Below are positions 1 through 39,943 of a DNA stretch of 64,000 nucleotides, in pieces (position 1 is the stretch's first letter; each line of letters begins with the position of its first letter). The stretch spans positions 64,001 through 128,000 of the forward strand of contig CP060223.1 in assembly GCA_023898465.1 (NCBI GenBank), read 5' to 3'. The notes under the pieces are model-generated. The model was not told the origin of the DNA. It made no database searches and was given only the letters and a program-made list of their open reading frames with translations. The translations under genes were made by a program, and so were the position numbers. This stretch comes from Candidatus Nomurabacteria bacterium. Its GTDB lineage: Bacteria; Patescibacteriota; Patescibacteriia; HK-STAS-PATE-3.

Positions 1-2
1 TT

Positions 3-3854: not shown

Positions 3855-3991
3855 CGAGATAAGATAGGGTAAAAATCCTTTTTGGGTTTGAAAAAACTCA
3901 GAGTGTTTTGTTGTTGACGAAATGATGAAAATATATCAAAATAAAACGGTAGTTTAACTTTTCTTTACTGAAAGAAAAAGGGGGATTTGGC

Positions 3992-6900
3992 TTGAAGATT
4001 AGCCAAGGAAAGAAAAAACAGGACTGGAAGGCTAGAAAAAAGAGAAAGTCAGGAAGATTCAGCCTTTTCAGTAATTTTTTTCAGAAAAATCGACGTCGTC
4101 AGACTAAACTGGAGCAACCCCACAGCTTAAAGCCTGGGGCTGTTTTATTGCAGCTTTTTAGACAGACGCGACGTTACCGGGCTCAACAGCTTGTCTCTAT
4201 TAGTCTGGCAATTGTTTTGCTCTTGGCTTTTGGTTTTCAAATGTTTGTTGTAGCGGCGCCACCTGAAACTGCTTTTACGACGGTAAGCTCCGATGCTGAA
4301 TGGAATATGGGCACGCTTGAAGATGTCACTGTGAATAGTGGCAGCATTGAAATTTCTGGAGACGGGGGAGCTGGCTGGTTGAGTGGATGGCAAAATAGGC
4401 AGCCGGTCACAATTACCAATACCGGTTCAGCGCAGACAAACTATCAAGTAAGAGTTGATGTTACCTATGATGCCAAAATGCAGGCGGATTTTGATGATTT
4501 ACGTTTTGCAAAAGCTGATGGCACTGAGCTGGACTTTTGGCTGCAATCTAAAGTTGATTCTACCTCAGCCGTTGTTTGGGTGGAGGTGGATTCTTTGGCT
4601 GGATCGGGCGATACGGTGATCTACATGTATTACAATAATTCTGGCGCTTCGAGTACATCGGACGGAGCGGCGACTTTTCCTCTCTTTGATGATTTCAATG
4701 ATGCAAGTATAGACACGGGTAAATGGGTAGAAGTTGATCCCAGCTCAAAAATTGATGAATCAGCCGGATCGCTCCGTTTCCTTTACGGGTCTGGTAGTGG
4801 AGCATGGAATGCAAGTGTGTATGGCGTCACTTCTTTTACGCGGGCGGATTGGAGTTTTGAGTGGGATCAAACTTGGATTAGCGATTATAATCCATATGAC
4901 GCCTTCATGTTTGGCTGGAAAGATGATGGCGGAGCGGTAAGTTACACAAATCTCGTGTATGGCTACTACAATAGTGGGTCGGGTTTTTGTACAACGAACT
5001 GTACAGGGAATGTGTATGAAGATGGGAATAGTCGGGGAAATGCTGGAGTATGGGACAAAGATGTAACGTATAATCTGCGGGTTCGCATGCGAAGTGCTGG
5101 CGGAGCTTACTATGAAAAGAGTACAAACAATGGGGGATCATGGACAACCGATTATACAAGCACCTATTCAACTGAGGCTTCTCTTCATCCAGCCTGGATG
5201 CATTACGCAGGTGATTATTTGATTGATAATGTGCGGGTACGTAAATGGATGGCAAGCGAGCCAAGTCTTGTCTTTGGCACCGAAGAATCCGCCCTCCAAT
5301 CACCTGGGACCTACACCTCCCACAACCTTGATCTCCAGTATATCTACCAATGGGGAGACTGTGCCTCTGGCTGTAATGACTCTTCCACTGCCTTCACTAC
5401 CAACATCACGGTTCCCAGTAACACCTCAGTCCAGTTTGAACTCCGCCATTCAGCTGACGGCTCCACCAACTGGTCATCATGGACATCCCTGGCTACCTAC
5501 ACTACCTCTGGTACCAAAACGCTCACCCGAGGAGACCTAGTGGGTCTCATTGGTGATATCTTCAATCGTTATGTCCAAACTCGGATTACGCTGACCTCCT
5601 CAGATGGGAGTAGTAATCCTTCCATCGCTGACTACCGCTACGACTACACCAGAGAAACTGATCCGCCCAGTAATCCCAACACGCAGAATGGCTATGCCTC
5701 GAATGGAGGAGCAGCCATTACTTCAGGTAATTGGTACAACCATCCAGCTCCCTACTTCACCTGGAGTGGCGCCAGTGACACTGATGCTGGTATGTCCGGA
5801 GGCTACTCCGGCTACTGGGTCTGCTTTGGCACCTCATCCTGTGAACCTACCTCTGGTACCTTTGTGTCTTCCGCTGCCTACACGGCTGGGAGTCTCACTA
5901 CCAATACGACCTACTACCTCCGCATCAAAGCGAGAGATGCTGCCGGCAATGTGGCCACCTCAGCCTACGATGCCTTTACCTACAAATACGACGCCACCCC
6001 ACCAGCCAATCCCTCTGGTATCCTGCCTGATCCGGCTGGCTTTACCAATGTGAATGACTTTGACTTCACCTGGAATACCGGCTCCGATGCGGGTGGCTCT
6101 GGTATTGCTGAATACTGCTACAAGACCGGAGAAGATGGCTATGTCGAAACCTGTACCGCCTCCACCTCAGTCACGGGTATTACTGCCTACCAAGAAGGAG
6201 CCAATATCTTTTACGTGAGAAGTAAAGATATCGCTGGCAACCTCCCCACCTTCTACACCCAGGTCTCTTACTACTACTCTGCCAATGCGCCTTCACCACC
6301 GCAAGGACTCGAGGTGGACCCCACAGAGAACACGGCCAACTCCTTTACCTTTACCTGGCTACTTCCCGCCTCCTACTCCAATCCGATTGCCACCTACCAT
6401 TACTCGGTAAATGCCTTACCCACGGCAAGTAACACGACCGCAACGACCAACCTCAGTGTCGGTCCTGGTGCCTTTGCCACCCAACAAGGCACGAACATCT
6501 TCTATGTCGTCGCCAAAGACACCGCTGGCAACGTGGAATGGGACTCCTACGCTGCAGTTGAGTTCACCGCCAATACCACTGCTCCAGGTATTCCAACTGG
6601 TGTGACCCTGACAGACTCATCCATTCGGGCCCAGAACAAGTATTCCCTCACCCTCACCTGGGATGCTCCAGAGAACGAAGGCTCAGGTATTGATCACTAC
6701 GTCATTGACCGCTCAACCACTATCGGCTGCAGTGATGGTTCAGGTACCTGGGTCCAGCATGCCACCACCACCGCTGAAGGCTACTTTGATCCGAATCTTT
6801 CCAATACCACGACCTACTGCTACCGCGTGAAGGCAGCCGACAATGCCGGAGCCCAATCCGCCACCTCCTCTATTGTCTCCATGCGTCCAGAAGGCCGCTT

Positions 6901-7528
6901 CACTGAACCTCCAGAACTCATTGGCTCCCCAGGGGTTGAAGCCTACATCCAGTCGGCGACCGTCGAGTGGCTGACTGATCGCGAAGGCAGCTCCTTTGTG
7001 GAGTTTGGCACGTCCTCAGATACTCTTGATCGTGTCATGGGCCAAGACGACTTTGTGACCAGTCACAGTGTCACCCTCCTCGACCTTGATCCGGCTACTA
7101 CCTACTACTATCGTACGAAATACACTGACCAAGACAGTAATACCGGCTATTCTTCAGTCCTCTCCTTTACCACTGCTGATGCACCGTCAGCTCCGACCAA
7201 CCTCAGTGTGGACCCAGAGAGTAATACCCGAAACTCCTTTACCTTTGCCTGGGATCCCCCCAGTGATGCTGGAGTCACTATTCAAGGCTACTTCTACAGT
7301 GTGAATGATGTCCCCACCAGTACGAATACCTCCTTCACTGCTCAGCAAGAGCTTGGCCCTGGCGCATATGCCACGAGACAAGGGAGAACGTCTTCTACCT
7401 TGTCGCTATTGATGAAGGAACAATGTGAACTACGACAACTATGCTGCAGTCGCTTTCACTGCCACGACCCCCGCTCCTGCCATCCCCACCGGCCTCATCA
7501 TTACCGATGCCTCGAACCGAGAAACTGA
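3992..7528 (+). CDS. giant surface protein paralog 1, N-terminal 1178-aa part (basic tail + TM anchor, DUF2341-like, ConA/glucanase-like head, FN3 array); frame lost near 7381-7420
   Basis: A TTG start is preceded by the RBS aaaggggga. A K/R-rich N-terminus is followed by a hydrophobic helix. The motif W.NRQPVTI...DFDDLRFAKADGTELDFWLQ...VWVEV...IYMYYNN matches DUF2341, and FDDFND..IDTGKW opens a ConA-like domain, followed by FN3 repeats. The ORF stops after two 1-nt deletions (GGGG->GGG at ~7384, loss of c at ~7419) relative to the intact copy at 22700. Confidence 0.7.
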   Translation: MKISQGKKKQDWKARKKRKSGRFSLFSNFFQKNRRRQTKLEQPHSLKPGAVLLQLFRQTRRYRAQQLVSISLAIVLLLAFGFQMFVVAAPPETAFTTVSSDAEWNMGTLEDVTVNSGSIEISGDGGAGWLSGWQNRQPVTITNTGSAQTNYQVRVDVTYDAKMQADFDDLRFAKADGTELDFWLQSKVDSTSAVVWVEVDSLAGSGDTVIYMYYNNSGASSTSDGAATFPLFDDFNDASIDTGKWVEVDPSSKIDESAGSLRFLYGSGSGAWNASVYGVTSFTRADWSFEWDQTWISDYNPYDAFMFGWKDDGGAVSYTNLVYGYYNSGSGFCTTNCTGNVYEDGNSRGNAGVWDKDVTYNLRVRMRSAGGAYYEKSTNNGGSWTTDYTSTYSTEASLHPAWMHYAGDYLIDNVRVRKWMASEPSLVFGTEESALQSPGTYTSHNLDLQYIYQWGDCASGCNDSSTAFTTNITVPSNTSVQFELRHSADGSTNWSSWTSLATYTTSGTKTLTRGDLVGLIGDIFNRYVQTRITLTSSDGSSNPSIADYRYDYTRETDPPSNPNTQNGYASNGGAAITSGNWYNHPAPYFTWSGASDTDAGMSGGYSGYWVCFGTSSCEPTSGTFVSSAAYTAGSLTTNTTYYLRIKARDAAGNVATSAYDAFTYKYDATPPANPSGILPDPAGFTNVNDFDFTWNTGSDAGGSGIAEYCYKTGEDGYVETCTASTSVTGITAYQEGANIFYVRSKDIAGNLPTFYTQVSYYYSANAPSPPQGLEVDPTENTANSFTFTWLLPASYSNPIATYHYSVNALPTASNTTATTNLSVGPGAFATQQGTNIFYVVAKDTAGNVEWDSYAAVEFTANTTAPGIPTGVTLTDSSIRAQNKYSLTLTWDAPENEGSGIDHYVIDRSTTIGCSDGSGTWVQHATTTAEGYFDPNLSNTTTYCYRVKAADNAGAQSATSSIVSMRPEGRFTEPPELIGSPGVEAYIQSATVEWLTDREGSSFVEFGTSSDTLDRVMGQDDFVTSHSVTLLDLDPATTYYYRTKYTDQDSNTGYSSVLSFTTADAPSAPTNLSVDPESNTRNSFTFAWDPPSDAGVTIQGYFYSVNDVPTSTNTSFTAQQELGPGAYATRQGRTSSTLSLLMKEQCELRQLCCSRFHCHDPRSCHPHRPHHYRCLEPRN

Positions 7529-8999
7529 AGACTACTCTATTGCCTTGAAGTGGAAAGCAGTGACCACTGAACAAGCCGGTAGCCTGGAAGATGACGCGGT
7601 GACCTACGAGATTCTCCGTTCCACTGATGGAGACAGCTTCTCCACCGTGGCCAACATTACCTCGACTGGCTACCTGGACGTCGATCTCGACAATACGACG
7701 GAGTATTACTACCAAGTGAAAGCCAAAGACTCCGCCGGCGCTGCTTCAGCTCCTTCGACCACCGTCTCAGATATCCCTGAGGGGAGATATACCACTCCAC
7801 CGGAGATTACCAAAGCCCCCCACGTTACTCCTTCCAGCTTCTCAGCCAAGGTAGAGTGGAGTACTGGACGGCCAACTACCTCCTTTGTTCAATTTGGCAC
7901 TAACCCCGCCTCATTAACAGAAGAGCAGGGTACTTCAAACCTTATCGCTGACCACGAGGTAACCATTGAGGGTTTGCAGCCTGAAACTACGTATTCATAT
8001 AGAGTAAAAAGTGTTGATGTGGATGGAAACATTTCACATTCAAGTGTTGCTACATTTACCACCCAGGCTGCTCCACGTGTTTCAAATGTAGGCATCAGCG
8101 ACGTACGTTTATTTGATGCTCTCATTAGCTGGGAAACAAATAAAGCGACCACAACTTCACTTGAGTATGGCACCACCACGAACTATGGTACAACGGTGAG
8201 CGATGCAACAGGATCAACTACCACATCTCATTTATATAAGTTAGAGAATTTGCAAGATGACACGCTCTACCATCTTCGTTTCCGTGGCGTTGATGCAGAA
8301 GGGACGCAAGTTAGTTCCGACGACTACACCTTCACCACCCTGACTTTCCCCCGGGTCGAGAACATCACCTGGGCTAATCAAGCCGAAGGCGAGACCGAAG
8401 TGCAATGGACTACGAATGTCCCCACCACCTCCCAAGTGGAATATTACAACGAAACTACTCCAGCCAAGACCCAAGGTAATACGGTCCTGACCACGGAACA
8501 CTCCGTCCTCCTCTTTGGCCTCGACGATGCCACCATTTACCAATTCCAAGTCCGAGGCACTGACCAATTTGGCTACGAAGCCATCTCAGATGAGCAAGAG
8601 TTCCGTACCCTGGAAGATACTACCCCTCCAGTCGTGAGTAATGTGCAGGTAGAGTCCAATACCATTGGCTCAGGTGAGCTCTCTCGTGTGCAGATCATTG
8701 TCCGCTGGACCACCAATGAGCCTACCTCTTCTCAAGTCCGCTTTGGTGAAGGAAATAACCTTTCCTCTGAATCAGATGTGAACCCAGAGTTAGTCTATGA
8801 TCACCTCCTTGTCGTCTCAGACCTAGAACCAGCGAGAACCTACAATATTCAAGCTATTGCCGTCGACAAAGCAGGGAATAGTACTGACTCTGATACCTAC
8901 CGAGTGCTTACCACCCGTCGGAGAGATTCCTTCCTCCAACTGGTCATTGGCAACCTGGAAGACACCTTTGCCTGGTTTACTAATATTGGAGGACTCTGA
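7425..8999 (+). CDS. C-terminal continuation of paralog 1 (FN3 repeats + conserved C-terminal tail) in shifted frame
   Basis: It translates as ...YDNYAAVAFTATTPAPAIPTGLIITDASNRETE..., collinear with residues ~1190-1712 of the intact paralog 4. It ends in ...RRRDSFLQLVIGNLEDTFAWFTNIGGL. Confidence 0.65.
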   Translation: MNYDNYAAVAFTATTPAPAIPTGLIITDASNRETEDYSIALKWKAVTTEQAGSLEDDAVTYEILRSTDGDSFSTVANITSTGYLDVDLDNTTEYYYQVKAKDSAGAASAPSTTVSDIPEGRYTTPPEITKAPHVTPSSFSAKVEWSTGRPTTSFVQFGTNPASLTEEQGTSNLIADHEVTIEGLQPETTYSYRVKSVDVDGNISHSSVATFTTQAAPRVSNVGISDVRLFDALISWETNKATTTSLEYGTTTNYGTTVSDATGSTTTSHLYKLENLQDDTLYHLRFRGVDAEGTQVSSDDYTFTTLTFPRVENITWANQAEGETEVQWTTNVPTTSQVEYYNETTPAKTQGNTVLTTEHSVLLFGLDDATIYQFQVRGTDQFGYEAISDEQEFRTLEDTTPPVVSNVQVESNTIGSGELSRVQIIVRWTTNEPTSSQVRFGEGNNLSSESDVNPELVYDHLLVVSDLEPARTYNIQAIAVDKAGNSTDSDTYRVLTTRRRDSFLQLVIGNLEDTFAWFTNIGGL

Positions 9000-11900
9000 T
9001 GGCACGGACGATGAAACATTGGCATAGAGGTGCAAAGAAGCGACCAGCTCATCCAGCAACACGTACGAGCTATCGTCGAAAATATCGCCAGCAAGTAGGT
9101 ATCTCGATTGCGGTGTTTTCACTTTTCCTACTCACTATCTCGTCATTTATCCAGGCAGCCGCACCAGAAGCCACCTACGTTGAAGTAACTTCAGACGCGG
9201 ACTGGAACATGGGCACCTTGAGCGATGTTACGGTGAATAGTGGGAGTATTGAAATCTCTGGAGATGGGGGAGCAAACTGGATAGCAGAATCAGGATGGCA
9301 ATTGCGGCAAAAGATTACCTTTGATGCTTCTACGCTCACGACATCTCTGAGTTATTTTCCCATCATGGTGCATATTGATAATACAAATACGGATTTTTGG
9401 GCAGGAGCGGCAAGTCGTGACGAAGTACGCTTCGGTGATAGCGATGGTGCCGTTTTAGATTTTCATTTTGAAAAATTTGATCATACTGCCGATGATGCCA
9501 TTGCCTGGGTTGAAGTGCCAACGCTAACTAATGATTCTTCTGATCACATATATCTCTATTATGGACACGCTTCACCAGCTAACGGTGAAGATGAAGCGGG
9601 CACCTATGATAATGACGGAAATTTTGTTGGCGTTTGGCACATGGCAGAGACAAGTGGTACGTCATATGATTCTACAAGTAATAACGTTGACCTCACTCCT
9701 CGCAATGCACCAACCCAAGATGAAACTGGCAAGGTAAATGGAGGAGATGGCTTCACAGGAAACGGCGACGCGCTCCATAATCAAACGTCAAGTATCGTAT
9801 TTGGAAATAGTATTACTCTAGAAGGTTGGTTTAAGCGAACCGGATCCGGTACTGGGTCCGGAAGAATTTTAGAATTTTCCCTGGATGGCGACGCTGATAG
9901 CCACGCCTTAGCCGTCGATTCAGACGGTTCACTTCGAGCCTGGGTGCAATGTACGACTGGTCGAGTTGGCAGCGCTGATGATCCTACTGTATATGGTACA
10001 GGAACTTGGTATTACTTCGCTTACACCTATGACGGATCGATTGGTCGACTTTATGTGAATGGTGTTCAGAAAAAAACTGCAAGTGGATCTTGTGCAAATT
10101 TAGATGATGCAGGGGACACTATTCTTGGAGCAATTTCTGACCAGAGCGGTGCTTACTCCCTGCCGCAACATGAATTTGATGGATATTTAGATGAACATCG
10201 TGCTTCTGATGTAGCTCGATCAGCTGATTGGATTAAAGCTGCTTATCTCTCCGAAACCGACACCCTCATCTCGACCTGGGGAAGTGAAGAATCCGCCCTC
10301 CAATCACCTGGCACTTACACCTCCCACAACCTTGATCTCCAGTATATCTACCAATGGGGAGACTGTGCCTCTGGCTGTAATGACTCTTCCACTGCCTTCA
10401 CTACCAACATCACGGTTCCCAGTAACACCTCAGTTCAGTTTGAACTCCGCCATTCAGCTGACGGCTCCACCAACTGGTCATCATGGACATCCCTGGCCAC
10501 CTACACCTCCTCTGGTACCAAAACGCTCACCCGAGGAGAGATGGTCACCCTCGTAGGCGATATCTTCAATCGTTATGTCCAAACCAGAATTACCCTCAGC
10601 TCCTCAGATGGCAGTAGTAATCCTTCCATCGCTGACTACCGCTACGACTACACCAGAGAAACTGATCCCCCCAGTAATCCCAACACCCAGAATGGCTATG
10701 CCTCGAATGGAGGAGCAGCCATTACTTCAGGTAATTGGTACAACCATCCTGCTCCCTACTTCACCTGGAGTGGAGCCAGTGATACTGATGCTGGTATGTC
10801 CGGAGGCTACTCCGGCTACTGGGTCTGCTTTGGCACCTCATCCTGTGAACCTACCTCTGGTACCTTTGTGTCTTCCGCTGCCTACACGGCTGGGAGTCTC
10901 ACTACCAATACGACCTACTACCTCCGCATCAAAGCGAGAGATGCTGCCGGCAATGTGGCCACCTCAGCCTACGATGCCTTTACCTACAAATACGACGCCA
11001 CCCCACCAGCCAATCCCTCTGGTATCCTGCCTGATCCGGCTGGCTTTACCAATGTGAATGACTTTGACTTCACCTGGAATACCGGCTCCGATGCGGGTGG
11101 CTCTGGTATTGCTGAATACTGCTACAAGACCGGAGAAGACGGCTATGTCGAAACCTGTACCGCCTCCACCTCAGTCACGGGTATTACTGCCTACCAAGAA
11201 GGAGCCAATATCTTTTACGTGAGAAGTAAAGATATCGCTGGCAACCTTCCCACCTTCTACACCCAGGTGTCCTACTACTACTCGGCCAATGCTCCTTCAC
11301 CACCGCAGGGACTTGCGGTTGATCCGACCGAGAACACGGCGAACTCCTTTACCTTTACCTGGCTTGCTCCCGCCTCCTACTCCAACCCGATTGCCACCTA
11401 CCATTACTCGGTGAATGCCTTACCCACGGCAAGTAACACGACCGCAACGACCAACCTCAGTGTCGGTCCTGGTGCCTTTGCCACCCAACAAGGCACGAAC
11501 ATCTTCTATGTCGTCGCCAAAGACACCGCTGGCAACGTGGAATGGGACTCCTACGCTGCAGTTGAGTTCACCGCCAATACCACTGCTCCAGGTATTCCAA
11601 CTGGTGTGACCCTGACCGACTCATCCATTCGGGCCCAGAACAAGTATTCCCTCACCCTCACCTGGGATGCTCCAGAGAACGAAGGCTCAGGTATTGATCA
11701 CTACGTCATTGACCGCTCAACCACTATCGGCTGCAGTGATGGTTCAGGTACCTGGGTCCAGCATGCCACCACCACCGCTGAAGGCTACTTTGATCCGAAT
11801 CTTTCCAATACCACCACCTACTGCTACCGCGTGAAGGCAGCCGACAATGCCGGAGCCCAATCCGCCACCTCCTCTATTGTCTCCATGCGTCCAGAAGGCC

Positions 11901-12268
11901 GCTTCACTGAACCCCCAGAACTCATTGGTTCCCCAGGGGTTGAAGCCTACATCCAGTCGGCGACTATTGAATGGTTAACAGATCGTGAGGCGAATTCATT
12001 TGTTGAATTCGGAGTAGCGTCTGACACTTTGGACCGAATTATGGGACAGGACGATTTCGTTTCCTCGCATACAGTACAATTATTGGATCTAGAGCCTGCC
12101 ACAACATATTATTATCGAACCAAGCATACTGATCAGGATAGCAATACTGGTTACTCTACAATTTTGTCATTTTCAACGGCGGACGCCCTCTGCTCCAACA
12201 AATTTGACCGTGAGCCCAGAAAGCAACACACGCAATTCATTTACTTTTTCATGGGATGCGCCAAGTGA
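8999..12268 (+). CDS. giant surface protein paralog 2, N-terminal part (basic tail + TM anchor, DUF2341-like, Laminin_G_3-like head, FN3 array); frameshifted near 12185
   Basis: An ATG overlaps the upstream stop (cTGATGg). Both the DUF2341 motif (...DEVRFGDSDGAVLDFHFEKFD...IAWVEVP...IYLYYGH) and the LamG_3 motif (VWHM..TSG..DST..N...GTWYYFAYTYDG..GRLYVNGV) are present. From ~10290 the sequence is near-identical at nt level to 5280-7200, 15470-17400 and 21300-22700. Confidence 0.7.
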   Translation: MARTMKHWHRGAKKRPAHPATRTSYRRKYRQQVGISIAVFSLFLLTISSFIQAAAPEATYVEVTSDADWNMGTLSDVTVNSGSIEISGDGGANWIAESGWQLRQKITFDASTLTTSLSYFPIMVHIDNTNTDFWAGAASRDEVRFGDSDGAVLDFHFEKFDHTADDAIAWVEVPTLTNDSSDHIYLYYGHASPANGEDEAGTYDNDGNFVGVWHMAETSGTSYDSTSNNVDLTPRNAPTQDETGKVNGGDGFTGNGDALHNQTSSIVFGNSITLEGWFKRTGSGTGSGRILEFSLDGDADSHALAVDSDGSLRAWVQCTTGRVGSADDPTVYGTGTWYYFAYTYDGSIGRLYVNGVQKKTASGSCANLDDAGDTILGAISDQSGAYSLPQHEFDGYLDEHRASDVARSADWIKAAYLSETDTLISTWGSEESALQSPGTYTSHNLDLQYIYQWGDCASGCNDSSTAFTTNITVPSNTSVQFELRHSADGSTNWSSWTSLATYTSSGTKTLTRGEMVTLVGDIFNRYVQTRITLSSSDGSSNPSIADYRYDYTRETDPPSNPNTQNGYASNGGAAITSGNWYNHPAPYFTWSGASDTDAGMSGGYSGYWVCFGTSSCEPTSGTFVSSAAYTAGSLTTNTTYYLRIKARDAAGNVATSAYDAFTYKYDATPPANPSGILPDPAGFTNVNDFDFTWNTGSDAGGSGIAEYCYKTGEDGYVETCTASTSVTGITAYQEGANIFYVRSKDIAGNLPTFYTQVSYYYSANAPSPPQGLAVDPTENTANSFTFTWLAPASYSNPIATYHYSVNALPTASNTTATTNLSVGPGAFATQQGTNIFYVVAKDTAGNVEWDSYAAVEFTANTTAPGIPTGVTLTDSSIRAQNKYSLTLTWDAPENEGSGIDHYVIDRSTTIGCSDGSGTWVQHATTTAEGYFDPNLSNTTTYCYRVKAADNAGAQSATSSIVSMRPEGRFTEPPELIGSPGVEAYIQSATIEWLTDREANSFVEFGVASDTLDRIMGQDDFVSSHTVQLLDLEPATTYYYRTKHTDQDSNTGYSTILSFSTADALCSNKFDREPRKQHTQFIYFFMGCAK

Positions 12269-12279
12269 TGAAGGAGTAG

Positions 12280-13563
12280 ATGCAGGGATATTTCTACAGT
12301 ATTAATGACGTGCCAACTAGTACAAACACTTCCTTCACTACGCAAACTGAATTAGGTCCAGGTGCATATGCTAGCCGGCAGGGTGAAAATGTGTTTTATG
12401 TAGTAGCGATCGATGATGCAAATAATATTAATTATAGTAATTACGCAAGTATTTCATTTAGTGCTGAAACCCCCGCTCCTGCCATCCCCACCGGCCTCAT
12501 CATTACCGATGCCTCGAACCGAGAAACTGAAGACTACTCTATTGCCTTGAAGTGGAAAGCAGTGACCACTGAACAAGCCGGTAGCCTGGAAGATGATGCG
12601 GTGACCTACGAGATTCTCCGTTCCACTGATGGAGACAGCTTCTCCACCGTGGCCAACATTACCTCGACTGGCTACCTGGATGTCGATCTCGACAATACGA
12701 CGGAGTATTACTACCAAGTGAAAGCCAAAGACTCCGCCGGCGCTGCTTCAGCTCCTTCGACCACCGTCTCAGATATCCCTGAGGGGAGATATACCACTCC
12801 ACCGGAGATTACCAAAGCCCCCCACGTTACTCCTTCCAGCTTCTCAGCCAAGGTAGAGTGGAGTACTGACCGTGATGCTGATTCCCACGTAGAATATGGC
12901 AGCACCTCAGATCTCACTGAAGAGCAAGGGACGATTGATGAAACTGATGAACATAGCATCCAACTCGAAGGACTCCAACCAGAAACGACCTATTACTACC
13001 GCATTCGTTCACGTGACCAAGATGGCAATGTAGCCCTCTCGAGCATCACTACCTTTACTACCTTGGAGGCACCGAGGGTGTCAAACGTAAAGATAAGCGA
13101 CATTCGTTTATTTGATGCTTTTCTTACTTGGGATACGAATGTTGCTTTAACTACTGAACTTGAGTATGGCATTTCTACAAATTACGGAACCATTGTGAGT
13201 GATGCCACAGCCTCAAGAACAACCAGCCACACGGTAAGACTGCAAAACCTCACTGATGGTACACTTTACCACTTACGTTTACGAGGAACAGATAGTGAAG
13301 GAAACTTACTTTTGTCCGACGACTACACCTTCACCACCCTGACCTTCCCCCGGGTCGAGAACATCACCTGGGCTAATCAAGCCGAAGGCGAGACCGAAGT
13401 GCAATGGACTACGAATGTCCCCACCACCTCCCAAGTGGAATATTACAACGAAACGACTCCAGCCAAGACCCAAGGTAATACGGTCCTGACCACGGAACAC
13501 TCCGTCCTCTCCTCTTTGGCCTCGACGATGCCACCATTTACCAATTCAAGTCCGAGGTACTGA
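12280..13563 (+). CDS. paralog 2 middle fragment (FN3 repeats) after frameshifts
   Basis: It translates as QGYFYSINDVPTSTNTSF..., collinear with the other copies. The 11990-12480 stretch is a diverged, more AT-rich variant of the shared module with two frame changes. Confidence 0.6.
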   Translation: MQGYFYSINDVPTSTNTSFTTQTELGPGAYASRQGENVFYVVAIDDANNINYSNYASISFSAETPAPAIPTGLIITDASNRETEDYSIALKWKAVTTEQAGSLEDDAVTYEILRSTDGDSFSTVANITSTGYLDVDLDNTTEYYYQVKAKDSAGAASAPSTTVSDIPEGRYTTPPEITKAPHVTPSSFSAKVEWSTDRDADSHVEYGSTSDLTEEQGTIDETDEHSIQLEGLQPETTYYYRIRSRDQDGNVALSSITTFTTLEAPRVSNVKISDIRLFDAFLTWDTNVALTTELEYGISTNYGTIVSDATASRTTSHTVRLQNLTDGTLYHLRLRGTDSEGNLLLSDDYTFTTLTFPRVENITWANQAEGETEVQWTTNVPTTSQVEYYNETTPAKTQGNTVLTTEHSVLSSLASTMPPFTNSSPRY

Positions 13564-13632
13564 CCAATTTGGCTACGAAGCCATCTCAGATGAGCAAGAG
13601 TTCCGTACCCTGGAAGATACTACCCCTCAGTC

Positions 13633-13998
13633 GTGAGTAATGTGCAGGTAGAGTCCAATACCATTGGCTCAGGTGAGCTCTCTCGTGTGCAGATCATTGT
13701 CCGCTGGACCACCAATGAGCCTACCTCTTCCCAAGTCCGCTTTGGTGAAGGAAATAGCCTTTCCTCTGAATCAGATGTGAACCCAGAGTTAGTCTATGAT
13801 CACCTCCTTGTCGTCTCAGACCTAGAACCAGCGAGAACCTACAATATTCAGGCTATTGCCGTTGACAAAGCAGGGAATAGTACTGACTCTGATACCTACC
13901 GAGTGCTTACCACCCGTCGGAGAGATTCCTTCCTCCAACTGGTCATTGGCAACCTGGAAGACACCTTTGCCTGGTTTACCAATATTGGGGGGTTGTAG
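13633..13998 (+). CDS. paralog 2 C-terminal fragment (FN3 + conserved tail)
   Basis: It follows a 2-nt insertion (ctcTCctc) and single-C deletions at 13500-13630 relative to 8500-8640. It ends in the conserved tail ...DSFLQLVIGNLEDTFAWFTNIGGL. Confidence 0.6.
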   Translation: MSNVQVESNTIGSGELSRVQIIVRWTTNEPTSSQVRFGEGNSLSSESDVNPELVYDHLLVVSDLEPARTYNIQAIAVDKAGNSTDSDTYRVLTTRRRDSFLQLVIGNLEDTFAWFTNIGGL

Positions 13999-14036
13999 CA
14001 TAGAGAAAGTTGAAGAAGTTTTAGGAATTTCCTGAT

Positions 14037-14065
14037 TTGACTAAATCAAGGAAAAATTTTACAAT
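14037..14065 (+). promoter_or_regulatory. sigma70-like promoter for paralog 3 (TTGACT-N17-TACAAT)
   Basis: The sequence is ttgact aaatcaaggaaaaattt tacaat. It lies 50 nt upstream of the TTG start context at 14112. Confidence 0.45.
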
Positions 14066-14423
14066 ATAACAACAAAAAATAATTTTAATTTGCGAAATTA
14101 AGGATTTTGGCTTGAAGATTAGCCAAAAAATTTTTTTCGGGGAAGAGAAAAAGAGCCAAGGCTCAAATATCTCAAGCACGAAAAAAACAAGACTTCAAAG
14201 CTATCTAACTGGTAGCATGCTTCATAGAAAAGAAAAAAACCAGGCAACTCTGCGCGTGGTTTTTTTGTGCTGACAAAAAAATATCGCCTGCAGTCAGTCA
14301 TCTCGGTAATGCTTGCCATTACTTTAGGTTTCGGCATTTTTTGCAGTTTAATGCAATTGCCGCTCCACCAGAAGCCACTTACATTGAAGTAACTTCAGAC
14401 GCAGACTGGAACATGGGCACCTT

Positions 14424-17400
14424 TTGAGCGATGTTACAGTGAATAGCGGGAGTATTGAGATCTCCGGAGATGGGGGAGCGAACTGGATAGCAGAGTCTGG
14501 CTGGCAATTCAGACAGCAATTGACCTTTGATGCATCTTCATTAAGTGCTCCAGTCGCCAATATGCCGATTATGGTGCATATCAGTGCATCCAACACTGAC
14601 TACTGGGGCGAAGTGACCTCAAGAGATGAAACCCGTTTCGGCGATAGCGATGGTACGGCTTTAGACTTTCATTTTGAGAAATTTGATGATGCCAATGATG
14701 ATGCGATTGCCTGGGTAGAAGTGCCTCAGGTTGATAATGCTGATACCGACTCCATCTATCTTTACTATGGAAATGATGCGGCAACGAATGGTGAAGATGG
14801 GGCGGGCACCTATGATAATGATGGGAATTTTCAGGGTGTATGGCACATGAATAATGCAACCAGCACCACAATCAGCGATAGTACTGGACATGGTTATACC
14901 GGTACAAAGGGTGCGAGCACGGCTGCCCCAACTCAGGTCAACGGACAAATTGGTTATGCACAATCTTTCGACGGCGGTGACTATATTGATTTTGGCAACG
15001 TTCTTAATCCAGGAAGTAATGATTGGACTGTAGAAATTTGGTTTAAAACAACTTCAAATGGGAGTCCTAGTTCACGAATTCTCTATAATAAAGAGAATTT
15101 GTACGAGGCTGCGGCAGCCGGAAGTTCTTACCACGACTACGCCTGGCAGCCGCACTGGGCTTGGGATGGAGGAACTGCTTTTTCCGTTACAAATAATGTT
15201 TGGCATTTGTCTGGGACGACATACGATAAGTCCAAGCAACGTTTATATAAGAATGGTGTCCTTGTGTACAACCGGGACCAGGGTGGCGTCATGGGGACAA
15301 CCACTTCACGCTTACAATTTGGCGCCCGAGGAGATACTGGGCACTCATCTTTTTATATTGGAGAGATTGATGAAGTGCGCATGTCGAGTACGGCTCGGAG
15401 CGCAGACTGGTTAGCCTTAGCGCATCTCTCCGAAACCGACACCCTCATCTCGACCTGGGGAAGTGAAGAATCCGCCCTCCAATCACCTGGCACTTACACC
15501 TCCCACAACCTTGATCTCCAGTATATCTACCAATGGGGAGACTGTGCCTCTGGCTGTAATGACTCTTCCACTGCCTTCACTACCAACATCACGGTTCCCA
15601 GTAACACCTCAGTTCAGTTTGAACTCCGCCATTCAGCTGACGGCTCCACCAACTGGTCATCATGGACATCCCTGGCCACCTACACCTCCTCTGGTACCAA
15701 AACGCTCACCCGAGGAGAGATGGTCACCCTCGTAGGCGATATCTTCAATCGTTATGTCCAAACCAGAATTACCCTCAGCTCCTCAGATGGCAGTAGTAAT
15801 CCTTCCATCGCTGACTACCGCTACGACTACACCAGAGAAACTGATCCGCCCAGTAATCCCAACACCCAGAATGGCTATGCCTCGAATGGAGGAGCAGCCA
15901 TTACTTCAGGTAATTGGTACAACCATCCAGCTCCCTACTTCACCTGGAGTGGCGCCAGTGATACTGATGCTGGTATGTCCGGAGGCTACTCCGGCTACTG
16001 GGTCTGCTTTGGCACCTCATCCTGTGAACCTACCTCTGGTACCTTTGTGTCTTCCGCTGCCTACACGGCTGGGAGTCTCACTACCAATACGACCTACTAC
16101 CTCCGCATCAAAGCGAGAGATGCTGCCGGCAATGTGGCCACCTCAGCCTACGATGCCTTTACCTACAAATACGACGCCACCCCACCAGCCAATCCCTCTG
16201 GTATCCTGCCTGATCCGGCTGGCTTTACCAATGTGAATGACTTTGACTTCACCTGGAATACCGGCTCCGATGCGGGTGGCTCTGGTATTGCTGAATACTG
16301 CTACAAGACCGGAGAAGACGGCTATGTCGAAACCTGTACCGCCTCCACCTCAGTCACGGGTATTACTGCCTACCAAGAAGGAGCCAATATCTTTTACGTG
16401 AGAAGTAAAGATATCGCTGGCAACCTTCCCACCTTCTACACTCAGGTGTCCTACTACTACTCGGCCAATGCCCCTTCACCACCCCAGGGACTTGCGGTTG
16501 ATCCTACCGAGAACACGGCGAACTCCTTTACCTTTACCTGGCTACTTCCCGCCTCCTACTCCAACCCGATTGCCACCTACCACTACTCGGTGAATGCCTT
16601 ACCCACGGCAAGTAACACGACCGCAACGACCAACCTCAGTGTCGGTCCTGGTGCCTTTGCCACCCAACAAGGCACGAACATCTTCTATGTCGTCGCCAAA
16701 GACACGGCTGGCAACGTGGAATGGGACTCCTACGCTGCAGTTGAGTTCACTGCCAATACCACTGCTCCAGGTATTCCAACTGGTGTGACCCTGACCGACT
16801 CATCCATTCGGGCCCAGAACAAGTATTCCCTCACCCTCACCTGGGATGCTCCAGAGAACGAAGGCTCAGGTATTGATCACTACGTCATTGACCGCTCAAC
16901 CACTATCGGCTGCAGTGATGGTTCAGGTACCTGGGTCCAGCATGCCACCACCACCGCTGAAGGCTACTTTGATCCGAATCTTTCCAATACCACCACCTAC
17001 TGCTACCGCGTGAAGGCAGCCGACAATGCCGGAGCCCAATCCGCCACCTCCTCTATTGTCTCCATGCGTCCAGAAGGCCGCTTCACTGAACCCCCAGAAC
17101 TCATTGGTTCCCCAGGGGTTGAAGCCTACATCCAGTCGGCCACCGTCGAGTGGCTGACTGATCGCGAAGGCAGCTCCTTTGTGGAGTTTGGCACGTCCTC
17201 AGATACTCTTGATCGTGTCATGGGCCAAGATGACTTTGTGACCAGTCACAGCGTCACCCTCCTCGACCTTGATCCGGCTACTACCTACTACTATCGTACG
17301 AAATACACTGACCAAGACAGTAATACCGGCTATTCTTCAGTCCTCTCCTTTACCACTGCTGATGCACCGTCAGCTCCGACCAACCTCAGTGTGGACCCAG

Positions 17401-17597
17401 AGAGTAATACCCAGAAACTCCTTTACCTTTGCCTGGGATCCCCCAGTGATGCTGGAGTCACTATTCAAGGCTACTTCTACAGTGTGAATGATGTCCCCCA
17501 CCAGTACGAATACCTCCCTTCACTGCTCAGCAAGAGCTTGGCCCTGGCGCATATGCCACGAGACAAGGGAGAACGTCTTCTACCTTGTCGCTATTGA
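14424..17597 (+). CDS. giant surface protein paralog 3, main fragment (DUF2341-like, LamG_3-like head, FN3 array); N-terminal leader 14112-14424 disrupted, frame lost near 17413-17520
   Basis: Upstream, 14112 carries the same TTG-AAG-ATT-AGC-CAA start context as gene 1 but is broken at A/T homopolymers, and a tt insertion at ~14425 (ggcaccttTTgagcg) cuts the frame. The body contains DUF2341 and LamG_3 motifs. Its shared module is near-identical to paralogs 1, 2 and 4. Confidence 0.7.
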   Translation: MSDVTVNSGSIEISGDGGANWIAESGWQFRQQLTFDASSLSAPVANMPIMVHISASNTDYWGEVTSRDETRFGDSDGTALDFHFEKFDDANDDAIAWVEVPQVDNADTDSIYLYYGNDAATNGEDGAGTYDNDGNFQGVWHMNNATSTTISDSTGHGYTGTKGASTAAPTQVNGQIGYAQSFDGGDYIDFGNVLNPGSNDWTVEIWFKTTSNGSPSSRILYNKENLYEAAAAGSSYHDYAWQPHWAWDGGTAFSVTNNVWHLSGTTYDKSKQRLYKNGVLVYNRDQGGVMGTTTSRLQFGARGDTGHSSFYIGEIDEVRMSSTARSADWLALAHLSETDTLISTWGSEESALQSPGTYTSHNLDLQYIYQWGDCASGCNDSSTAFTTNITVPSNTSVQFELRHSADGSTNWSSWTSLATYTSSGTKTLTRGEMVTLVGDIFNRYVQTRITLSSSDGSSNPSIADYRYDYTRETDPPSNPNTQNGYASNGGAAITSGNWYNHPAPYFTWSGASDTDAGMSGGYSGYWVCFGTSSCEPTSGTFVSSAAYTAGSLTTNTTYYLRIKARDAAGNVATSAYDAFTYKYDATPPANPSGILPDPAGFTNVNDFDFTWNTGSDAGGSGIAEYCYKTGEDGYVETCTASTSVTGITAYQEGANIFYVRSKDIAGNLPTFYTQVSYYYSANAPSPPQGLAVDPTENTANSFTFTWLLPASYSNPIATYHYSVNALPTASNTTATTNLSVGPGAFATQQGTNIFYVVAKDTAGNVEWDSYAAVEFTANTTAPGIPTGVTLTDSSIRAQNKYSLTLTWDAPENEGSGIDHYVIDRSTTIGCSDGSGTWVQHATTTAEGYFDPNLSNTTTYCYRVKAADNAGAQSATSSIVSMRPEGRFTEPPELIGSPGVEAYIQSATVEWLTDREGSSFVEFGTSSDTLDRVMGQDDFVTSHSVTLLDLDPATTYYYRTKYTDQDSNTGYSSVLSFTTADAPSAPTNLSVDPESNTQKLLYLCLGSPSDAGVTIQGYFYSVNDVPHQYEYLPSLLSKSLALAHMPRDKGERLLPCRY

Positions 17598-18051
17598 TGA
17601 AGCGAACAATGTGAACTACGACAACTATGCTGCAGTCGCTTTCACTGCCACGACCCCTGCTCCTGCCATCCCCACCGGCCTCATCATTACCGATGCCTCG
17701 AACCGAGAAACTGAAGACTACTCTATTGCCTTGAAGTGGAAAGCAGTGACCACTGAACAAGCCGGTAGCCTGGAAGATGATGCGGTGACCTACGAGATTC
17801 TCCGTTCCACTGATGGAGACAGCTTCTCCACCGTGGCCAACATTACCTCGACTGGCTACCTGGATGTCGATCTCGACAATACGACGGAGTATTACTACCA
17901 AGTGAAAGCCAAAGACTCCGCCGGCGCTGCTTCAGCTCCTTCGACCACCGTCTCAGATATCCCTGAGGGAGATATACCACTCCACCGGAGATTACCAAAG
18001 CCCCCACGTTACTCCTTCCAGCTTCTCAGCCAAGGTAGAGTGGAGTACTGA
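17488..18051 (+). CDS. paralog 3 fragment (FN3 repeat) between frameshifts
   Basis: The portion from ~17570 on reads ENVFYLVAIDEANNVNYDNYAAVAFTATTPAPAIPTGLIITD..., collinear with the other copies. It is flanked by homopolymer indels (acccAgaaac, C6->C5, C insertions at 17495-17520, loss of g at ~17970). Confidence 0.5.
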   Translation: MMSPTSTNTSLHCSARAWPWRICHETRENVFYLVAIDEANNVNYDNYAAVAFTATTPAPAIPTGLIITDASNRETEDYSIALKWKAVTTEQAGSLEDDAVTYEILRSTDGDSFSTVANITSTGYLDVDLDNTTEYYYQVKAKDSAGAASAPSTTVSDIPEGDIPLHRRLPKPPRYSFQLLSQGRVEY

Positions 18052-18244
18052 CCGTGATGCTGATTCCCACGTAGAATATGGCAGCACCTCAGATCTCACT
18101 GAAGAGCAAGGGACGATTGATGAAACTGATGAACATAGCATCCAACTCGAAGGACTCCAACCAGAAACGACCTATTACTACCGTATTCGTTCACGTGACC
18201 AAGATGGCAATGTAGCCCTCTCGAGCATCACTACCTTTACTACC

Positions 18245-19180
18245 TTGGAGGCACCGAGGGTGTCGGATGTGGTCATTTCTGATATCAAACTTTACGATGC
18301 GCTTATTGCGTGGAAAACAAACAAGGCAACAACAACGGTTTTGGAATATGGTACGACTGAGCAATACGGCCAAAGTCTCGCAGATACTTCTGGGTCCCTT
18401 ACCACGAACCATATTGTGAAGCTTGATAGCTTAACCGATGATACACTGTATCATTTCCGTCCTACTGGTTTCGACGAGAGCGGGAATGCTCCAGAGAGTA
18501 GCGACTACACCTTCACCACCCTGACCTTCCCCCGGGTCGAGAACATCACCTGGGCTAATCAAGCCGAAGGCGAGACCGAAGTGCAATGGACTACCAATGT
18601 CCCCACCACCTCCCAAGTGGAATACTACAACGAAACTACTCCAGCCAAGACCCAAGGTAATACGGTCCTGACCACGGAACACTCCGTCCTTCTCTTTGGC
18701 CTCGACGATGCCACCATTTACCAATTCCAAGTCCGAGGCACTGACCAATTTGGCTACGAAGCCATCTCAGATGAGCAAGAGTTCCGTACCCTGGAAGATA
18801 CTACCCCCCCAGTCGTGAGTAATGTGCAGGTAGAGTCCAATACCATTGGCTCAGGTGAGCTCTCTCGTGTGCAGATCATTGTCCGCTGGACCACCAATGA
18901 GCCTACCTCTTCCCAAGTCCGCTTTGGTGAAGGAAATAACCTTTCCTCTGAATCAGATGTGAACCCAGAGTTAGTCTATGATCACCTCCTTGTCGTCTCA
19001 GACCTAGAACCAGCGAGAACCTACAATATTCAGGCTATTGCCGTTGACAAAGCAGGGAATAGTACTGACTCTGATACCTACCGAGTGCTTACCACCCGTC
19101 GGAGAGATTCCTTCCTCCAACTGGTCATTGGCAACCTGGAAGACACCTTTGCCTGGTTTACCAATATTGGGGGGTTGTGA
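18245..19180 (+). CDS. paralog 3 C-terminal fragment (FN3 repeats + conserved tail)
   Basis: The collinear in-frame region starts at about 18010 (after the stop ending ORF 17488..18051) and ends in ...RRRDSFLQLVIGNLEDTFAWFTNIGGL. Its stop overlaps the next start (gTGATGa). Confidence 0.6.
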   Translation: MEAPRVSDVVISDIKLYDALIAWKTNKATTTVLEYGTTEQYGQSLADTSGSLTTNHIVKLDSLTDDTLYHFRPTGFDESGNAPESSDYTFTTLTFPRVENITWANQAEGETEVQWTTNVPTTSQVEYYNETTPAKTQGNTVLTTEHSVLLFGLDDATIYQFQVRGTDQFGYEAISDEQEFRTLEDTTPPVVSNVQVESNTIGSGELSRVQIIVRWTTNEPTSSQVRFGEGNNLSSESDVNPELVYDHLLVVSDLEPARTYNIQAIAVDKAGNSTDSDTYRVLTTRRRDSFLQLVIGNLEDTFAWFTNIGGL

Positions 19181-24367: not shown

Positions 24368-25090
24368 ATGGCTGAGCAAAGCAGAAAAAAACCGATTATC
24401 GAACTCAAAAATATTATCAAAGAATTCCGAGTGGGGAAGAATACGATTCGTGTCCTTAAAGATATTAACGCACGAATTGAACCACAGGAGTTTATCATTA
24501 TTCTCGGACCATCTGGATCAGGAAAGTCGACGCTTTTGAATACCATAATTGGTTTAGAGCGCCCCACCTCCGGTCAAGTTTTGGTTGCGAATGAAGATCT
24601 CACTACACTCAGCTCTGATAAGTTGGCAGCTTTTCGTTTACAGAATTACGGCGTGGTATACCAGCGTCCTGACTGGATAAAAGCTTTGAATATCGTACAA
24701 AATGTAGCCTTTCCTTTAGCTATTGCAAATCATTCCATGACAGAAGCAATTCCTAAGGCAATCGAACTTCTAAAGCGCTTTGGTATGGACGATCATGCTG
24801 AATATGCGCCAAGCGAACTCTCTGGTGGACAACAACAGAAGTGCGAAATTGCTCGATCCTTAATAATGGATCCAGACATTGTTATTGCTGACGAGCCTAC
24901 AGGAAACCTGGATACTGATTCAGCTGAGCGCGTGATGAATATATTTACCGAATTGCGAGAAAAGGATAAGAAAACTGTAATCATGGTTACTCATAACATT
25001 GAATATGTTCGCTATGCGACCCATACTATTTATGTACGAGATGGTCGTGTATTAGAAGGTGAACAATCATTCGGCACAAAGAAGAAGTAG
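24368..25090 (+). CDS. ABC transporter ATP-binding protein, MacB/LolD/FtsE-type
   Basis: The Walker A motif is GPSGSGKST, the signature motif is LSGGQQQKCEIARSL, and the Walker B motif is IVIADEPTGNLD. It lies immediately upstream of the FtsX-domain permease. Confidence 0.85.
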   Translation: MAEQSRKKPIIELKNIIKEFRVGKNTIRVLKDINARIEPQEFIIILGPSGSGKSTLLNTIIGLERPTSGQVLVANEDLTTLSSDKLAAFRLQNYGVVYQRPDWIKALNIVQNVAFPLAIANHSMTEAIPKAIELLKRFGMDDHAEYAPSELSGGQQQKCEIARSLIMDPDIVIADEPTGNLDTDSAERVMNIFTELREKDKKTVIMVTHNIEYVRYATHTIYVRDGRVLEGEQSFGTKKK

Positions 25091-25093
25091 AGT

Positions 25094-28957: not shown

Positions 28958-29002
28958 TCAAGCACACTGTTCATTCACGTCCCGCCTCAAGTGAGGATCA
29001 CT

Positions 29003-32728: not shown

Positions 32729-32861
32729 CACGTCGTGCATTCTCAAGGGATGGAAGAGCTTCCATCCCGGAATGAGTGCGAGACCCGTACTCTGAACGTT
32801 GACAATTGAACGTATCAGGACTGGTTCCTGCATACGACGAGATAAACTTGGAGGTTTCCGT

Positions 32862-34085: not shown

Positions 34086-34335
34086 TGTACGAATCCTGGC
34101 CACTTGGTCAGTACTCATAACTCGTCGGGTGGTCAGGAGATCCGTAAGGATTTCTACAAAAGGACCTAAGGGTCCGCGACCTGTGCCGAACGCACACGGA
34201 GGACAACATGCGAAAGCGTGCTCCGCCGACTATCTGATGAGCTTGTGTAACTGACCATGCCCCAATCAACTTGTTTGGGGCTAGGGATTAACCTGCCCCG
34301 ACAACAAAAAATTGGGGCAAGCCAAGGAGGAAGCC

Positions 34336-35625: not shown

Positions 35626-35667
35626 TCGCCAGCCCTGGGAACGCTGACGATTGCACATTCTTGCCCC

Positions 35668-35712
35668 GCCCGCTACAACACTTTGTGTTGAAGCGCGGCG
35701 GGGCTTTCTTTT
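35668..35712 (+). terminator. intrinsic terminator (GC hairpin + ctttctttt)
   Basis: The sequence is gccccgcccgct...agcgcggcggggc followed by a T-run. A TTGACA promoter lies 70 nt downstream (35782). Confidence 0.5.
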
Positions 35713-37207: not shown

Positions 37208-37221
37208 AAGGGAGATTCCTG

Positions 37222-39869: not shown

Positions 39870-39897
39870 TCCGCGACTGCAACGTTCTTTACTTCAA

Positions 39898-39936: not shown

Positions 39937-39943
39937 ACTATGC

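Follow-up and report, generated by a model that had tools for sequence, protein, structure and literature searches.

Small indels interrupting a tandem array of giant surface-protein genes in a Patescibacteria genome are probably residual nanopore errors

Contingency loci are known as homopolymer or tetranucleotide tracts in surface genes of Neisseria, Haemophilus and Campylobacter, and silent-cassette systems based on gene conversion include pilE/pilS, vlsE/vls, msp2 and the MgPa repeats. Repeat copies can also carry errors of the assembly itself, as aligned reads prefer the error-free instance of a repeat and errors in repeats persist (Polypolish, Wick & Holt 2022, PMC8812927), and as Unicycler falls back on long-read consensus wherever the graph of short reads provides no path (Wick et al. 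2017, PMC5481147). The genome studied here, HK-STAS-PATE-3, is a circular Patescibacteria MAG of 1,082,586 bp with a GC of 0.470, obtained from ONT PromethION reads of 86.7% mean accuracy and 2x150 Illumina reads that were assembled with metaFlye and then per bin with Unicycler v0.4.8 (Liu et al. 2021, PMC8518188). We analysed one stretch of 64,000 nt from it (the window) and conclude that the indels breaking three paralogous genes, p1-p3, are probably residual nanopore errors of the hybrid metagenome assembly and absent from the DNA of the organism.

At least five giant genes for membrane-anchored surface proteins, p0 to p4, stand in tandem at this locus, with a shared layout of a TM anchor, DUF2341 with or without LamG, and then FN3-like repeats (Table 1). 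The array is organised as the pairs p1-p2 and p3-p4, each promoter-led and coupled by a stop/start overlap; the ATG start of p2 overlaps the p1 stop codon (TGATG), and the p3 stop overlaps the start of p4. In the present sequence, p1 is split into 3992..7528 (USN53606) and 7425..8999 (USN53607), p2 into 8999..12268, 12280..13563 (USN53609) and 13633..13998 (USN53610), and p3 into leader pieces followed by 14424..17597, 17488..18051 and 18245..19180; exact ORF look-ups found none of the p3 pieces among deposited proteins. At full length, p1, p2 and p3 each possess their own start codon and membrane anchor. A previous sequence-only reading of this DNA had regarded both p0 and p4 as intact, which is correct for p4; the p0 ORF is still open at the left edge of the window, so only its 3' 3.85 kb could be judged. 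The C-terminal module of p0 shows 67% DNA identity to the other copies. Each paralog is a mosaic in which blocks of 99-100% identity stand beside anciently diverged modules, and this mixture of identical and saturated blocks fits segmental gene conversion, but a graph-based assembler can also impose exact identity. Purifying selection on the modules is strong, with a pN of 0.13 where pS is saturated and dN/dS of 0.17-0.53 elsewhere.

Table 1. Coordinates of the genes, promoter-like sites and indel patches in the window
Feature	Position	Strand	Description
p0, 3' part	1..3854	+	FN3 / Pur_ac_phosph_N repeats
Promoter-like site, 5' of p1	3914..3942	+	TTGACG-17-CAAAAT, 9/12 matches
p1	3992..8999	+	TTG start, MKISQ leader, TM anchor, DUF2341, FN3 repeats
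p1 patch, 35 nt	7382..7419	+	GGGG>GGG at 7382-7384; C lost between 7418 and 7419
p2	8999..13998	+	DUF2341, Laminin_G_3, FN3 domains
p2 patch A	12184..12281	+	2-nt deficits at about 12184-12190 and about 12278-12281; 96 nt apart
p2 patch B	13505..13628	+	extra TC at about 13505-13513; C lost at 13547 and 13628; net 0
Promoter-like site, 5' of p3	14037..14065	+	TTGACT-17-TACAAT, 10/12 matches
p3	14112..19180	+	TTG MKISQ start as in p1
p3 leader patch	14260..14425	+	-1 at T7 (14260); -1 at T6 (14337); TT>TTTT (14422-14425)
p3 patch A	17413..17569	+	+A 17413; C6>C5 17440; C4>C5 17495-17499; CC>CCC 17516; GGGG>GGG 17567-17569
p3 patch B	17967..18005	+	GGGG>GGG 17967; C6>C5 18001
p4, intact	19177..24318	+	1713-codon ORF; NCBI USN53612 = 1708 aa
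ABC ATPase + MacB/FtsX permease, 3' of array	24368..26314	+	within the stretch matching short-read contig L001
Second NUDIX copy	62597..63110	+	about 6 indel events in about 220 nt; 92.7% duplicate

The four full paralogs were aligned with MAFFT, and indels were scored against the intact p4, to which the shared blocks were compared. This yielded 17 small indels (two in p1, five in p2 and ten in p3), made up of 13 one-nt and four two-nt events, or of 12 deletions against five insertions. Alignment is free of ambiguity where blocks are 99-100% identical, so the indel differences are not due to chance. All 17 events are held in six patches of 34-162 nt with a local indel density of 2-6%, flanked by kilobases without any indel. 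The runs at the lesions are mostly 1-6 nt long, with T7/A7 only in the p3 leader, and a minority of the events lie outside nucleotide runs. The surroundings of the p1 patch show no substitution relative to p4 over 710 nt. Patch A of p2 is located inside a diverged module (11969-12466) that is unique in the window, with a pS of about 1 and a pN of 0.13, and patch B of p2 contains one private C>T, its shifted frame meeting a stop at 13561-13563. The p3 leader patch is also unique sequence in the window, and its event at 14422 is given by the allele pair CATGGGCACCTTTTGAGCGATG / CATGGGCACCTTGAGCGATG, or equally by CACCTTTTGAGC / CACCTTGAGC. The five events of p3 patch A lie within 157 nt without any substitution relative to p4, and the GGGG>GGG lesion among them occupies the identical site to that of p1, while p3 patch B sits at the edge of a block shared with p4.

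The alignment bears out the G4>G3 change and the lost C that had been proposed for p1 near 7384 and 7419, the extra TC and two C losses in p2 (around 13548 and 13628), the frameshifted diverged module at about 11990-12480, in which we found two 2-nt deficits, and, in p3, the TT insertion at 14425, the added A, the C6>C5 change, the C insertions at 17495-17520 and the G loss near 17970. The p3 leader, described as broken at runs, indeed required three shifts, and minimal repairs at the T7, T6 and TTTT sites gave a clean ORF. Two p3 events had been overlooked, GGGG>GGG at 17567-17569 and C6>C5 at 18001, and a substitution near 13560 that had been read as G>T is C>T.

Reversion of the indels alone was sufficient to repair all three genes. 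The repaired p1 is a 1669-aa ORF (two indels reverted), p2 a 1667-aa ORF (five) and p3 a full-length ORF with a body of 1585 aa plus the leader (ten), and no nonsense codon was found in any of them after reversion. If p1-p3 were instead real genes that small indels inactivated very recently, with p4 and perhaps p0 still functional, weak mismatch repair might favour indels in such a reduced Patescibacteria genome, and gene conversion among the copies would keep the remainder of each gene intact-looking. We consider this unlikely, as 17 frameshifts, or 23 when the second NUDIX copy is added, stand against zero nonsense codons in p1-p3. Private changes in the shared blocks amount to no substitution beside two indels in p1, one beside six or seven in p3, and three beside three in p2, whereas substitutions should outnumber indels in bacterial mutation spectra. 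The mixed, gene-wide lesion spectrum of bona fide pseudogenes is absent from p1-p3; the lesions are confined to six compact patches, none longer than 162 nt, while 3-kb ORFs are untouched, and the block that holds the densest patch matches p4 at 100% identity and is the most recently homogenised. The long-term purifying selection on the modules, the promoter-like sites 5' of p1 and p3 and the overlap of p2 with the p1 stop also argue against gene decay. On the other hand, decay is usual in redundant tandem copies, and gene conversion could account for the sharing of the G3 allele by p1 and p3. Five lesions are in window-unique sequence, where short reads should correct errors, and other unique sequence is error-free. 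The window also contains a nonsense codon in ltrA, and a substitution is less likely than an indel as a nanopore error. The indels could also be real and mark short tracts of error-prone repair synthesis from inter-paralog gene conversion, given weak mismatch repair in a reduced genome, although we hold this to be quite improbable. If true, error-prone conversion would be a patchy, indel-only process that quickly silences and re-creates giant adhesin genes.

How short reads would be placed bears directly on residual error. Reads of 150 nt were simulated on the basis of the repaired copies, and own-locus placement was scored at the 12 indel events in shared blocks. Only 0-2 of 28 reads per site, and three of 364 overall, were placed at their own locus, and all 12 indels were unfixable in the simulation by polishing that gives each read one location. 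About 46% of p1-p3 can be starved of reads in this way, and the presence of 12 of the 17 events there is weakly non-random. The remaining five (three in the p3 leader and two in the diverged module of p2) lie in sequence that, at read length, occurs once in the window. Equally repetitive blocks are free of indels in every copy, for example where p1 equals p4 over about 870 nt; because these other repeat blocks are clean, a uniform error rate before polishing does not fit, and a uniform nanopore error over the whole bridge was rejected as too simple.

With residual error as the preferred explanation, the short-read graph would have lacked a path at a tangled repeat or dead end, and Unicycler would have pasted noisy long-read consensus, from which the patches at these particular sites would be derived. 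Polishing would then assign each short read one best location, such that reads from an error-bearing copy would go to a clean copy, mostly p4, and the error would stay. The five lesions in unique sequence would have escaped polishing, possibly because per-bin recruitment never gathered short reads for those stretches. Against assembly error, short-read polishing should ordinarily have fixed these five events. The clean repeat blocks, the low indel rates in mock benchmarks and the 2-nt and non-homopolymer events stand against it as well, and redundant paralogs are also the expected place of real pseudogenes. Among the points in its favour are the three intact tandem paralogs of a WWE3 relative and the purifying selection on the modules. 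For the allele pair GACAAGGGAGAACG / GACAAGGGGAGAACG, a ratio of about 2:1 would contradict assembly error.

The mock benchmarks of the workflow (QUAST) gave about 0.2-2 indels per 100 kb, far under the density observed here. Its fastmer insertion and deletion counts were discarded as a sign of an indel-rich pipeline, since SPAdes-only assemblies give equal counts, which therefore reflect differences from the reference. A Logan short-read contig, L001, corresponds to positions 24285-35090 of the window (10.8 kb) with no difference, including agreement at 152 homopolymers of at least 4 nt, and its start at 24285 was correctly given by a predicted Logan unitig boundary. The exact look-up of predicted unitig cut products was invalid, as the positive controls failed too, such products evidently not being indexed. 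RpoD, DnaG and PPDK are intact. A short-read scaffold, L002, is without any of the 17 indels, but may represent p4 or p2 only; it carries G4 where two of three window copies have G3, and it confirms the 3' 2 kb of p4 save one module that it takes from p2. The G3/G4 site pattern had no matches in metagenome contigs, and among genome contigs the p4 C-terminal protein matched a single one, from an unrelated Chitinophagales member, at 27% identity. Searching for homologues of the repaired p3 leader plus N-terminal domain gave nothing above 51% identity, and thus did not turn up a copy of p3 derived from short reads. Exact look-ups of the frameshift-bounded ORFs and of minus-strand ORFs in the p3 leader returned NCBI entries only, or none, and so lend independent weight to neither side.

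The module combination of L002, p4/p2/p4, differs from that of the window copies, and the presence of 100% identical blocks beside synonymous-saturated modules would fit a movement of segments between copies. Together with several A7/T7 runs in the p3 leader, these observations would suit slipped-strand switching of p1-p3 at short runs, or a role of the broken copies as gene-conversion donors for an expressed p4. This seems highly improbable. Most of the runs, at 1-6 nt, fall short of the length of a classical contingency tract, the genes p1-p3 do not contain the single long tract that sets the frame of contingency genes, and with 2-10 independent lesions per gene no single tract could toggle them. 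Donors with frameshifts would corrupt the copy that is expressed, and L002 may merely be a chimeric assembly path. Furthermore, promoterless, 5'-truncated donors with a single expression site are not seen here, where p2 and p4 overlap the preceding stops; considering their own starts and anchors, the promoter-like sites of p1 and p3 and the overlap of p2 with the p1 stop, p1-p3 are not promoterless truncated cassettes.

Two loci outside the array had been cited as showing the same kind of indels. The decayed NUDIX copy does so, and 27 substitutions accompany its indel events; after repair it has no stop, and its codon differences are 17 synonymous and 10 non-synonymous. The supposed T-run frameshift of ltrA near 60620 is instead a TGA that lies in frame (60627-60629) where a Trp is conserved, and because the lesion is a nonsense codon, ltrA is wrong as a supporting example. 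The gene encodes the low-temperature-requirement membrane protein PF06772, which rules out a group II intron reading of the name.

Taken all together, error-prone long-read input, small indels with few substitutions and ORFs restored by reversion, all as expected of assembly error, coincide at this locus. Between the two possibilities that the sequence-only reading had left side by side, uncorrected homopolymer errors are favoured by the provenance, the indel-only lesions, the full restoration of the ORFs and the read-starved positions, and the alternative of pseudogenes or phase-variable silent cassettes is not supported, real recent pseudogenes retaining a small probability. If the indels are artefacts, USN53606, USN53607, USN53609 and USN53610, together with the NUDIX piece USN53648, are fragments of probably four intact genes, and a 'complete' Patescibacteria genome under-reports its own largest surface proteins. 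Surveys of pseudogene load, phase variation and gene decay in nanopore-hybrid genomes of candidate phyla would then be misled by such loci. The underlying biology, in which membrane-anchored FN3 giants form a tandem family of mosaic genes, is of moderate interest in itself, as it bears on surface variation in episymbiont-like bacteria.

Compared with contingency loci, the array similarly has surface-protein genes put out of frame at nucleotide runs, but it shows many lesions per gene, mostly at runs of 1-6 nt, and no single long tract. It resembles silent-cassette systems in having one intact copy beside non-intact relatives and mosaic sharing of segments, and differs in that the non-intact copies are full-length, with starts, anchors and coupling, and have small indels as their sole defects. 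The WWE3 contig JAGQKZ010000006.1, from a short-read MAG, encodes the same domains at 43% identity to p4 in three same-strand tandem paralogs of at least 1645, 1852 and 1705 aa; all of its copies are intact, unlike p1-p3, and it adjoins a type IV pilus cluster, whereas the array here adjoins an ABC transporter. Residual long-read errors in repeats (PMC8812927, PMC5481147) share with this locus the nanopore input, the use of Unicycler, frameshifting indels mostly in short runs, and, for 12 of the 17 events, a place in repeat copies that have a clean counterpart, while unique sequence is perfect; the present case departs from them in that five of 17 events are window-unique, some are 2-nt or non-homopolymer events, and the density is well above that of the mock benchmarks.

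Five tandem paralogs (p0-p4) of giant surface proteins occupy positions 1-24318 of the window on the + strand. In the product of each, a basic N-terminus and a membrane anchor precede long repeats of the FN3 / Pur_ac_phosph_N type. According to Pfam, DUF2341 lies between the anchor and the repeats in p1, and DUF2341 together with Laminin_G_3 in p2 and p3, while the N-terminal region of p4 gave no Pfam match. The sequence-only reading took p0 and p4 to be intact; this holds for p4, and p0 is open, but it runs off the left edge so that its 3' part alone is visible. The p1 stop and p2 start overlap in TGATG, the p4 start overlaps the p3 stop, p1 and p3 have the start sequence TTG-MKISQ in common, and promoter-like sites lie upstream of both (TTGACT-17-TACAAT in p3). 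Considering these overlaps, shared starts and sites, the array is a two-gene unit present twice. A conserved inverted repeat, TTGGCT-N8-AGCCAA, encloses the TTG start codon in both p1 (3984-4003) and p3 (14105-14128), and the p3 repeat scores as terminator-like on the + strand because its 8-bp stem is followed by a T7 run. Downstream of the array are an ABC ATPase and a MacB/FtsX permease. A few kb downstream there is also a 181-aa protein matching Host_attach (PF10116) / baeRF family 12.

Features of the window, with the small indels that interrupt the paralogs
Feature	Position	Strand	Remark	Indels
p0	1..3854	+	ORF open at left edge	
p1	3992..8999	+		n = 2: G4>G3 at 7382-7384; C lost at 7418/7419
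p2	8999..13998	+		n = 5: 2-nt deficits at about 12184 and about 12280; +TC about 13507; -C 13547; -C 13628
p3	14112..19180	+		leader, n = 3: T7 at 14260; T6 at 14337; +TT at 14422; body, n = 7: +A 17413; C6>C5 17440; C4>C5 17499; CC>CCC 17516; G4>G3 17569; G4>G3 17967; C6>C5 18001
p4	19177..24318	+	intact, 1713 codons	
Host_attach protein	28991..29536			
GC-rich island	32800..43100			
tRNA-Ser(GGA)	56813..56902	-		
36-nt direct repeat	56868..56903; 57208..57243			
PF06772 gene	59526..60725	-	in-frame TGA at 60627-60629	
NUDIX copy 1	61196..61774			
NUDIX copy 2	62597..63110			

The 17 indel events in p1-p3 form six patches of 34-162 nt each, with kilobases free of lesions between them. Twelve are deletions and five are insertions, four involve 2 nt, and most fall in runs of 2-7 nt, with a few outside runs. 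When the indels alone were reverted, ORFs of 1669 aa (p1), 1667 aa (p2) and 1585 aa (p3 body) were obtained with no internal stops, and the repaired p3 leader is likewise a clean, stop-free 104 codons with the anchor architecture of p1. In a 710-nt block otherwise identical in p1, p3 and p4, private changes are two indels and no substitutions in p1 and 6-7 indels and one substitution in p3; p2 has three of each in its own shared block. The breaks listed from the sequence alone are all present, namely both in p1, the TC gain, two C losses and frameshifted diverged module of p2, and, in p3, the TT insertion, the leader frame breaks at nucleotide runs and five body indels. Two p3 events (17569 and 18001) had been overlooked, and a substitution near 13560 given as G>T is C>T.

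When the 3' 3 kb of the copies were aligned with p4, blocks of 99-100% identity alternated with modules of 50-70% identity. The p2 module at 11969-12466, compared with p4 22285-22786, shows a pN of 0.13 and a pS of about 1 (saturated synonymous sites), so that nearly the same protein is encoded with almost all synonymous sites changed, and it directly adjoins blocks of 100% identity. Other modules show dN/dS of 0.17-0.53. This sequence pattern indicates that the modules are old alleles under purifying selection, shuffled among the paralogs. We consider it unlikely that p1-p3 are real, recent pseudogenes, since natural decay must then have yielded 17 frameshifts (23 when NUDIX is counted) without a single nonsense codon, left almost no accompanying substitutions, and been confined to tight patches in genes under clear long-term purifying selection, with the greatest lesion density inside the block homogenised last. 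Given bacterial mutation spectra, decay meeting all these conditions together is very unusual. Phase variation or silent cassettes seem highly improbable, as each gene carries too many lesions, in runs of insufficient length, and the copies are coupled full-length genes, of which p1 and p3 are preceded by promoter-like sites.

The indels are probably an assembly artefact, that is, residual nanopore errors. The genome, HK-STAS-PATE-3, is circular with a GC content of 0.470 (Patescibacteria; ABY1; UBA10025) and had a relative abundance of 0.031% (Liu et al. 2021, Microbiome 9:205, PMC8518188). PromethION reads of 86.7% mean accuracy and 2x150 Illumina reads were taken through metaFlye, binning, per-bin read recruitment and two runs of Unicycler v0.4.8-beta, where short reads were kept at at least 80% identity and at least 80% coverage to the previous draft (PMC8518188). 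The p4 protein is identical to NCBI USN53612 (MAG: Candidatus Nomurabacteria bacterium; locus-tag prefix H6760), whose contig is single and 1,082,586 bp long. A Logan short-read contig (SRR12358676) equals window 24285-35090 with no differences over 10,806 nt, agrees at all 152 homopolymers of at least 4 nt (11 of at least 7 nt), and begins precisely where the repeat boundary was predicted; RpoD, DnaG and PPDK are intact. Unique sequence is accurate. In a read-placement simulation with Bowtie2-like scoring, 150-nt reads were drawn from the repaired copies at 28 per site. At each site of the 12 block indel events, just 0-2 of these reads (3/364 overall) were placed at their own locus in preference to another copy.

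A search for short-read contigs covering p1-p3 found none. A short-read ENA scaffold from another sample (ERZ28655665 scaffold_18052, 1-2040; SAMN08389244) has none of the indels, and reads G4 where two of three window copies read G3. It joins three segments, each 100% identical to the window sequence: p4 22329-23130, a module specific to p2 (12803-13330) and the 3' end of p4. This may reflect either a different, recombinant array in the population or a chimeric assembly path; as such, it is weak evidence for an artefact. Accession ranges and labels suggest the BioProject membership of SRR12358676 and SAMN08389244, and the latter sample probably belongs to the time series of the same plant.

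Several points do not fit an artefact. Five of the 17 events lie in window-unique sequence (all three of the p3 leader and both of the diverged p2 module) and should have been corrected by normal polishing; if copies were collapsed in the draft, the missing stretches would recruit no short reads, and such errors could survive. Other blocks, equally repetitive, have no indels, and because short reads would place at another, clean copy over about 46% of p1-p3, the presence of 12/17 events there shows only mild non-randomness. The mock benchmarks of the workflow, at just 0.2-2 indels per 100 kb, also count against an artefact, as does the fact that paralogs are a place where true pseudogenes arise too.

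Elsewhere in the window, the supposed T-run frameshift in ltrA, a PF06772 (LtrA-family) membrane protein gene, proved to be a nonsense substitution, a single in-frame TGA replacing the conserved Trp of RRATWLELFFDLVFV. With TGA read as Trp, the Pfam score rises from 166 to 266 bits and the match is extended to the whole profile, positions 1-353. This TGA could be a real nonsense mutation, read-through/recoding, or a rare substitution error. The two NUDIX genes, 1.4 kb apart, share 92.7% identity. Compared over 62597-63062, the second copy has 27 substitutions and about six indel events, concentrated in its 220 nt of highest similarity; when repaired, it is stop-free, and its codon differences from the first are 17 synonymous and 10 non-synonymous. 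As the sequence-only reading had proposed, its lesion signature is, by sequence comparison, that of the array. Separately, a perfect 36-nt direct repeat including the 5' part of tRNA-Ser(GGA) may be an integration-site remnant, and an island of high GC content (0.53-0.58; most flanking sequence has 0.43-0.48) holds seven large same-strand ORFs of 392-590 aa without Pfam match.

Other explanations take the remaining probability. Where a hybrid assembly contains short tracts of noisy consensus from nanopore reads, such a lesion pattern is ordinary. A WWE3 relative (JAGQKZ010000006.1, 1-25118), in which the paralogs adjoin a type IV pilus cluster (PilM, T2SSE, T2SSF, N_methyl pilins), carries three tandem paralogs, all of them intact (1645 aa or more, 1852 aa and 1705 aa).
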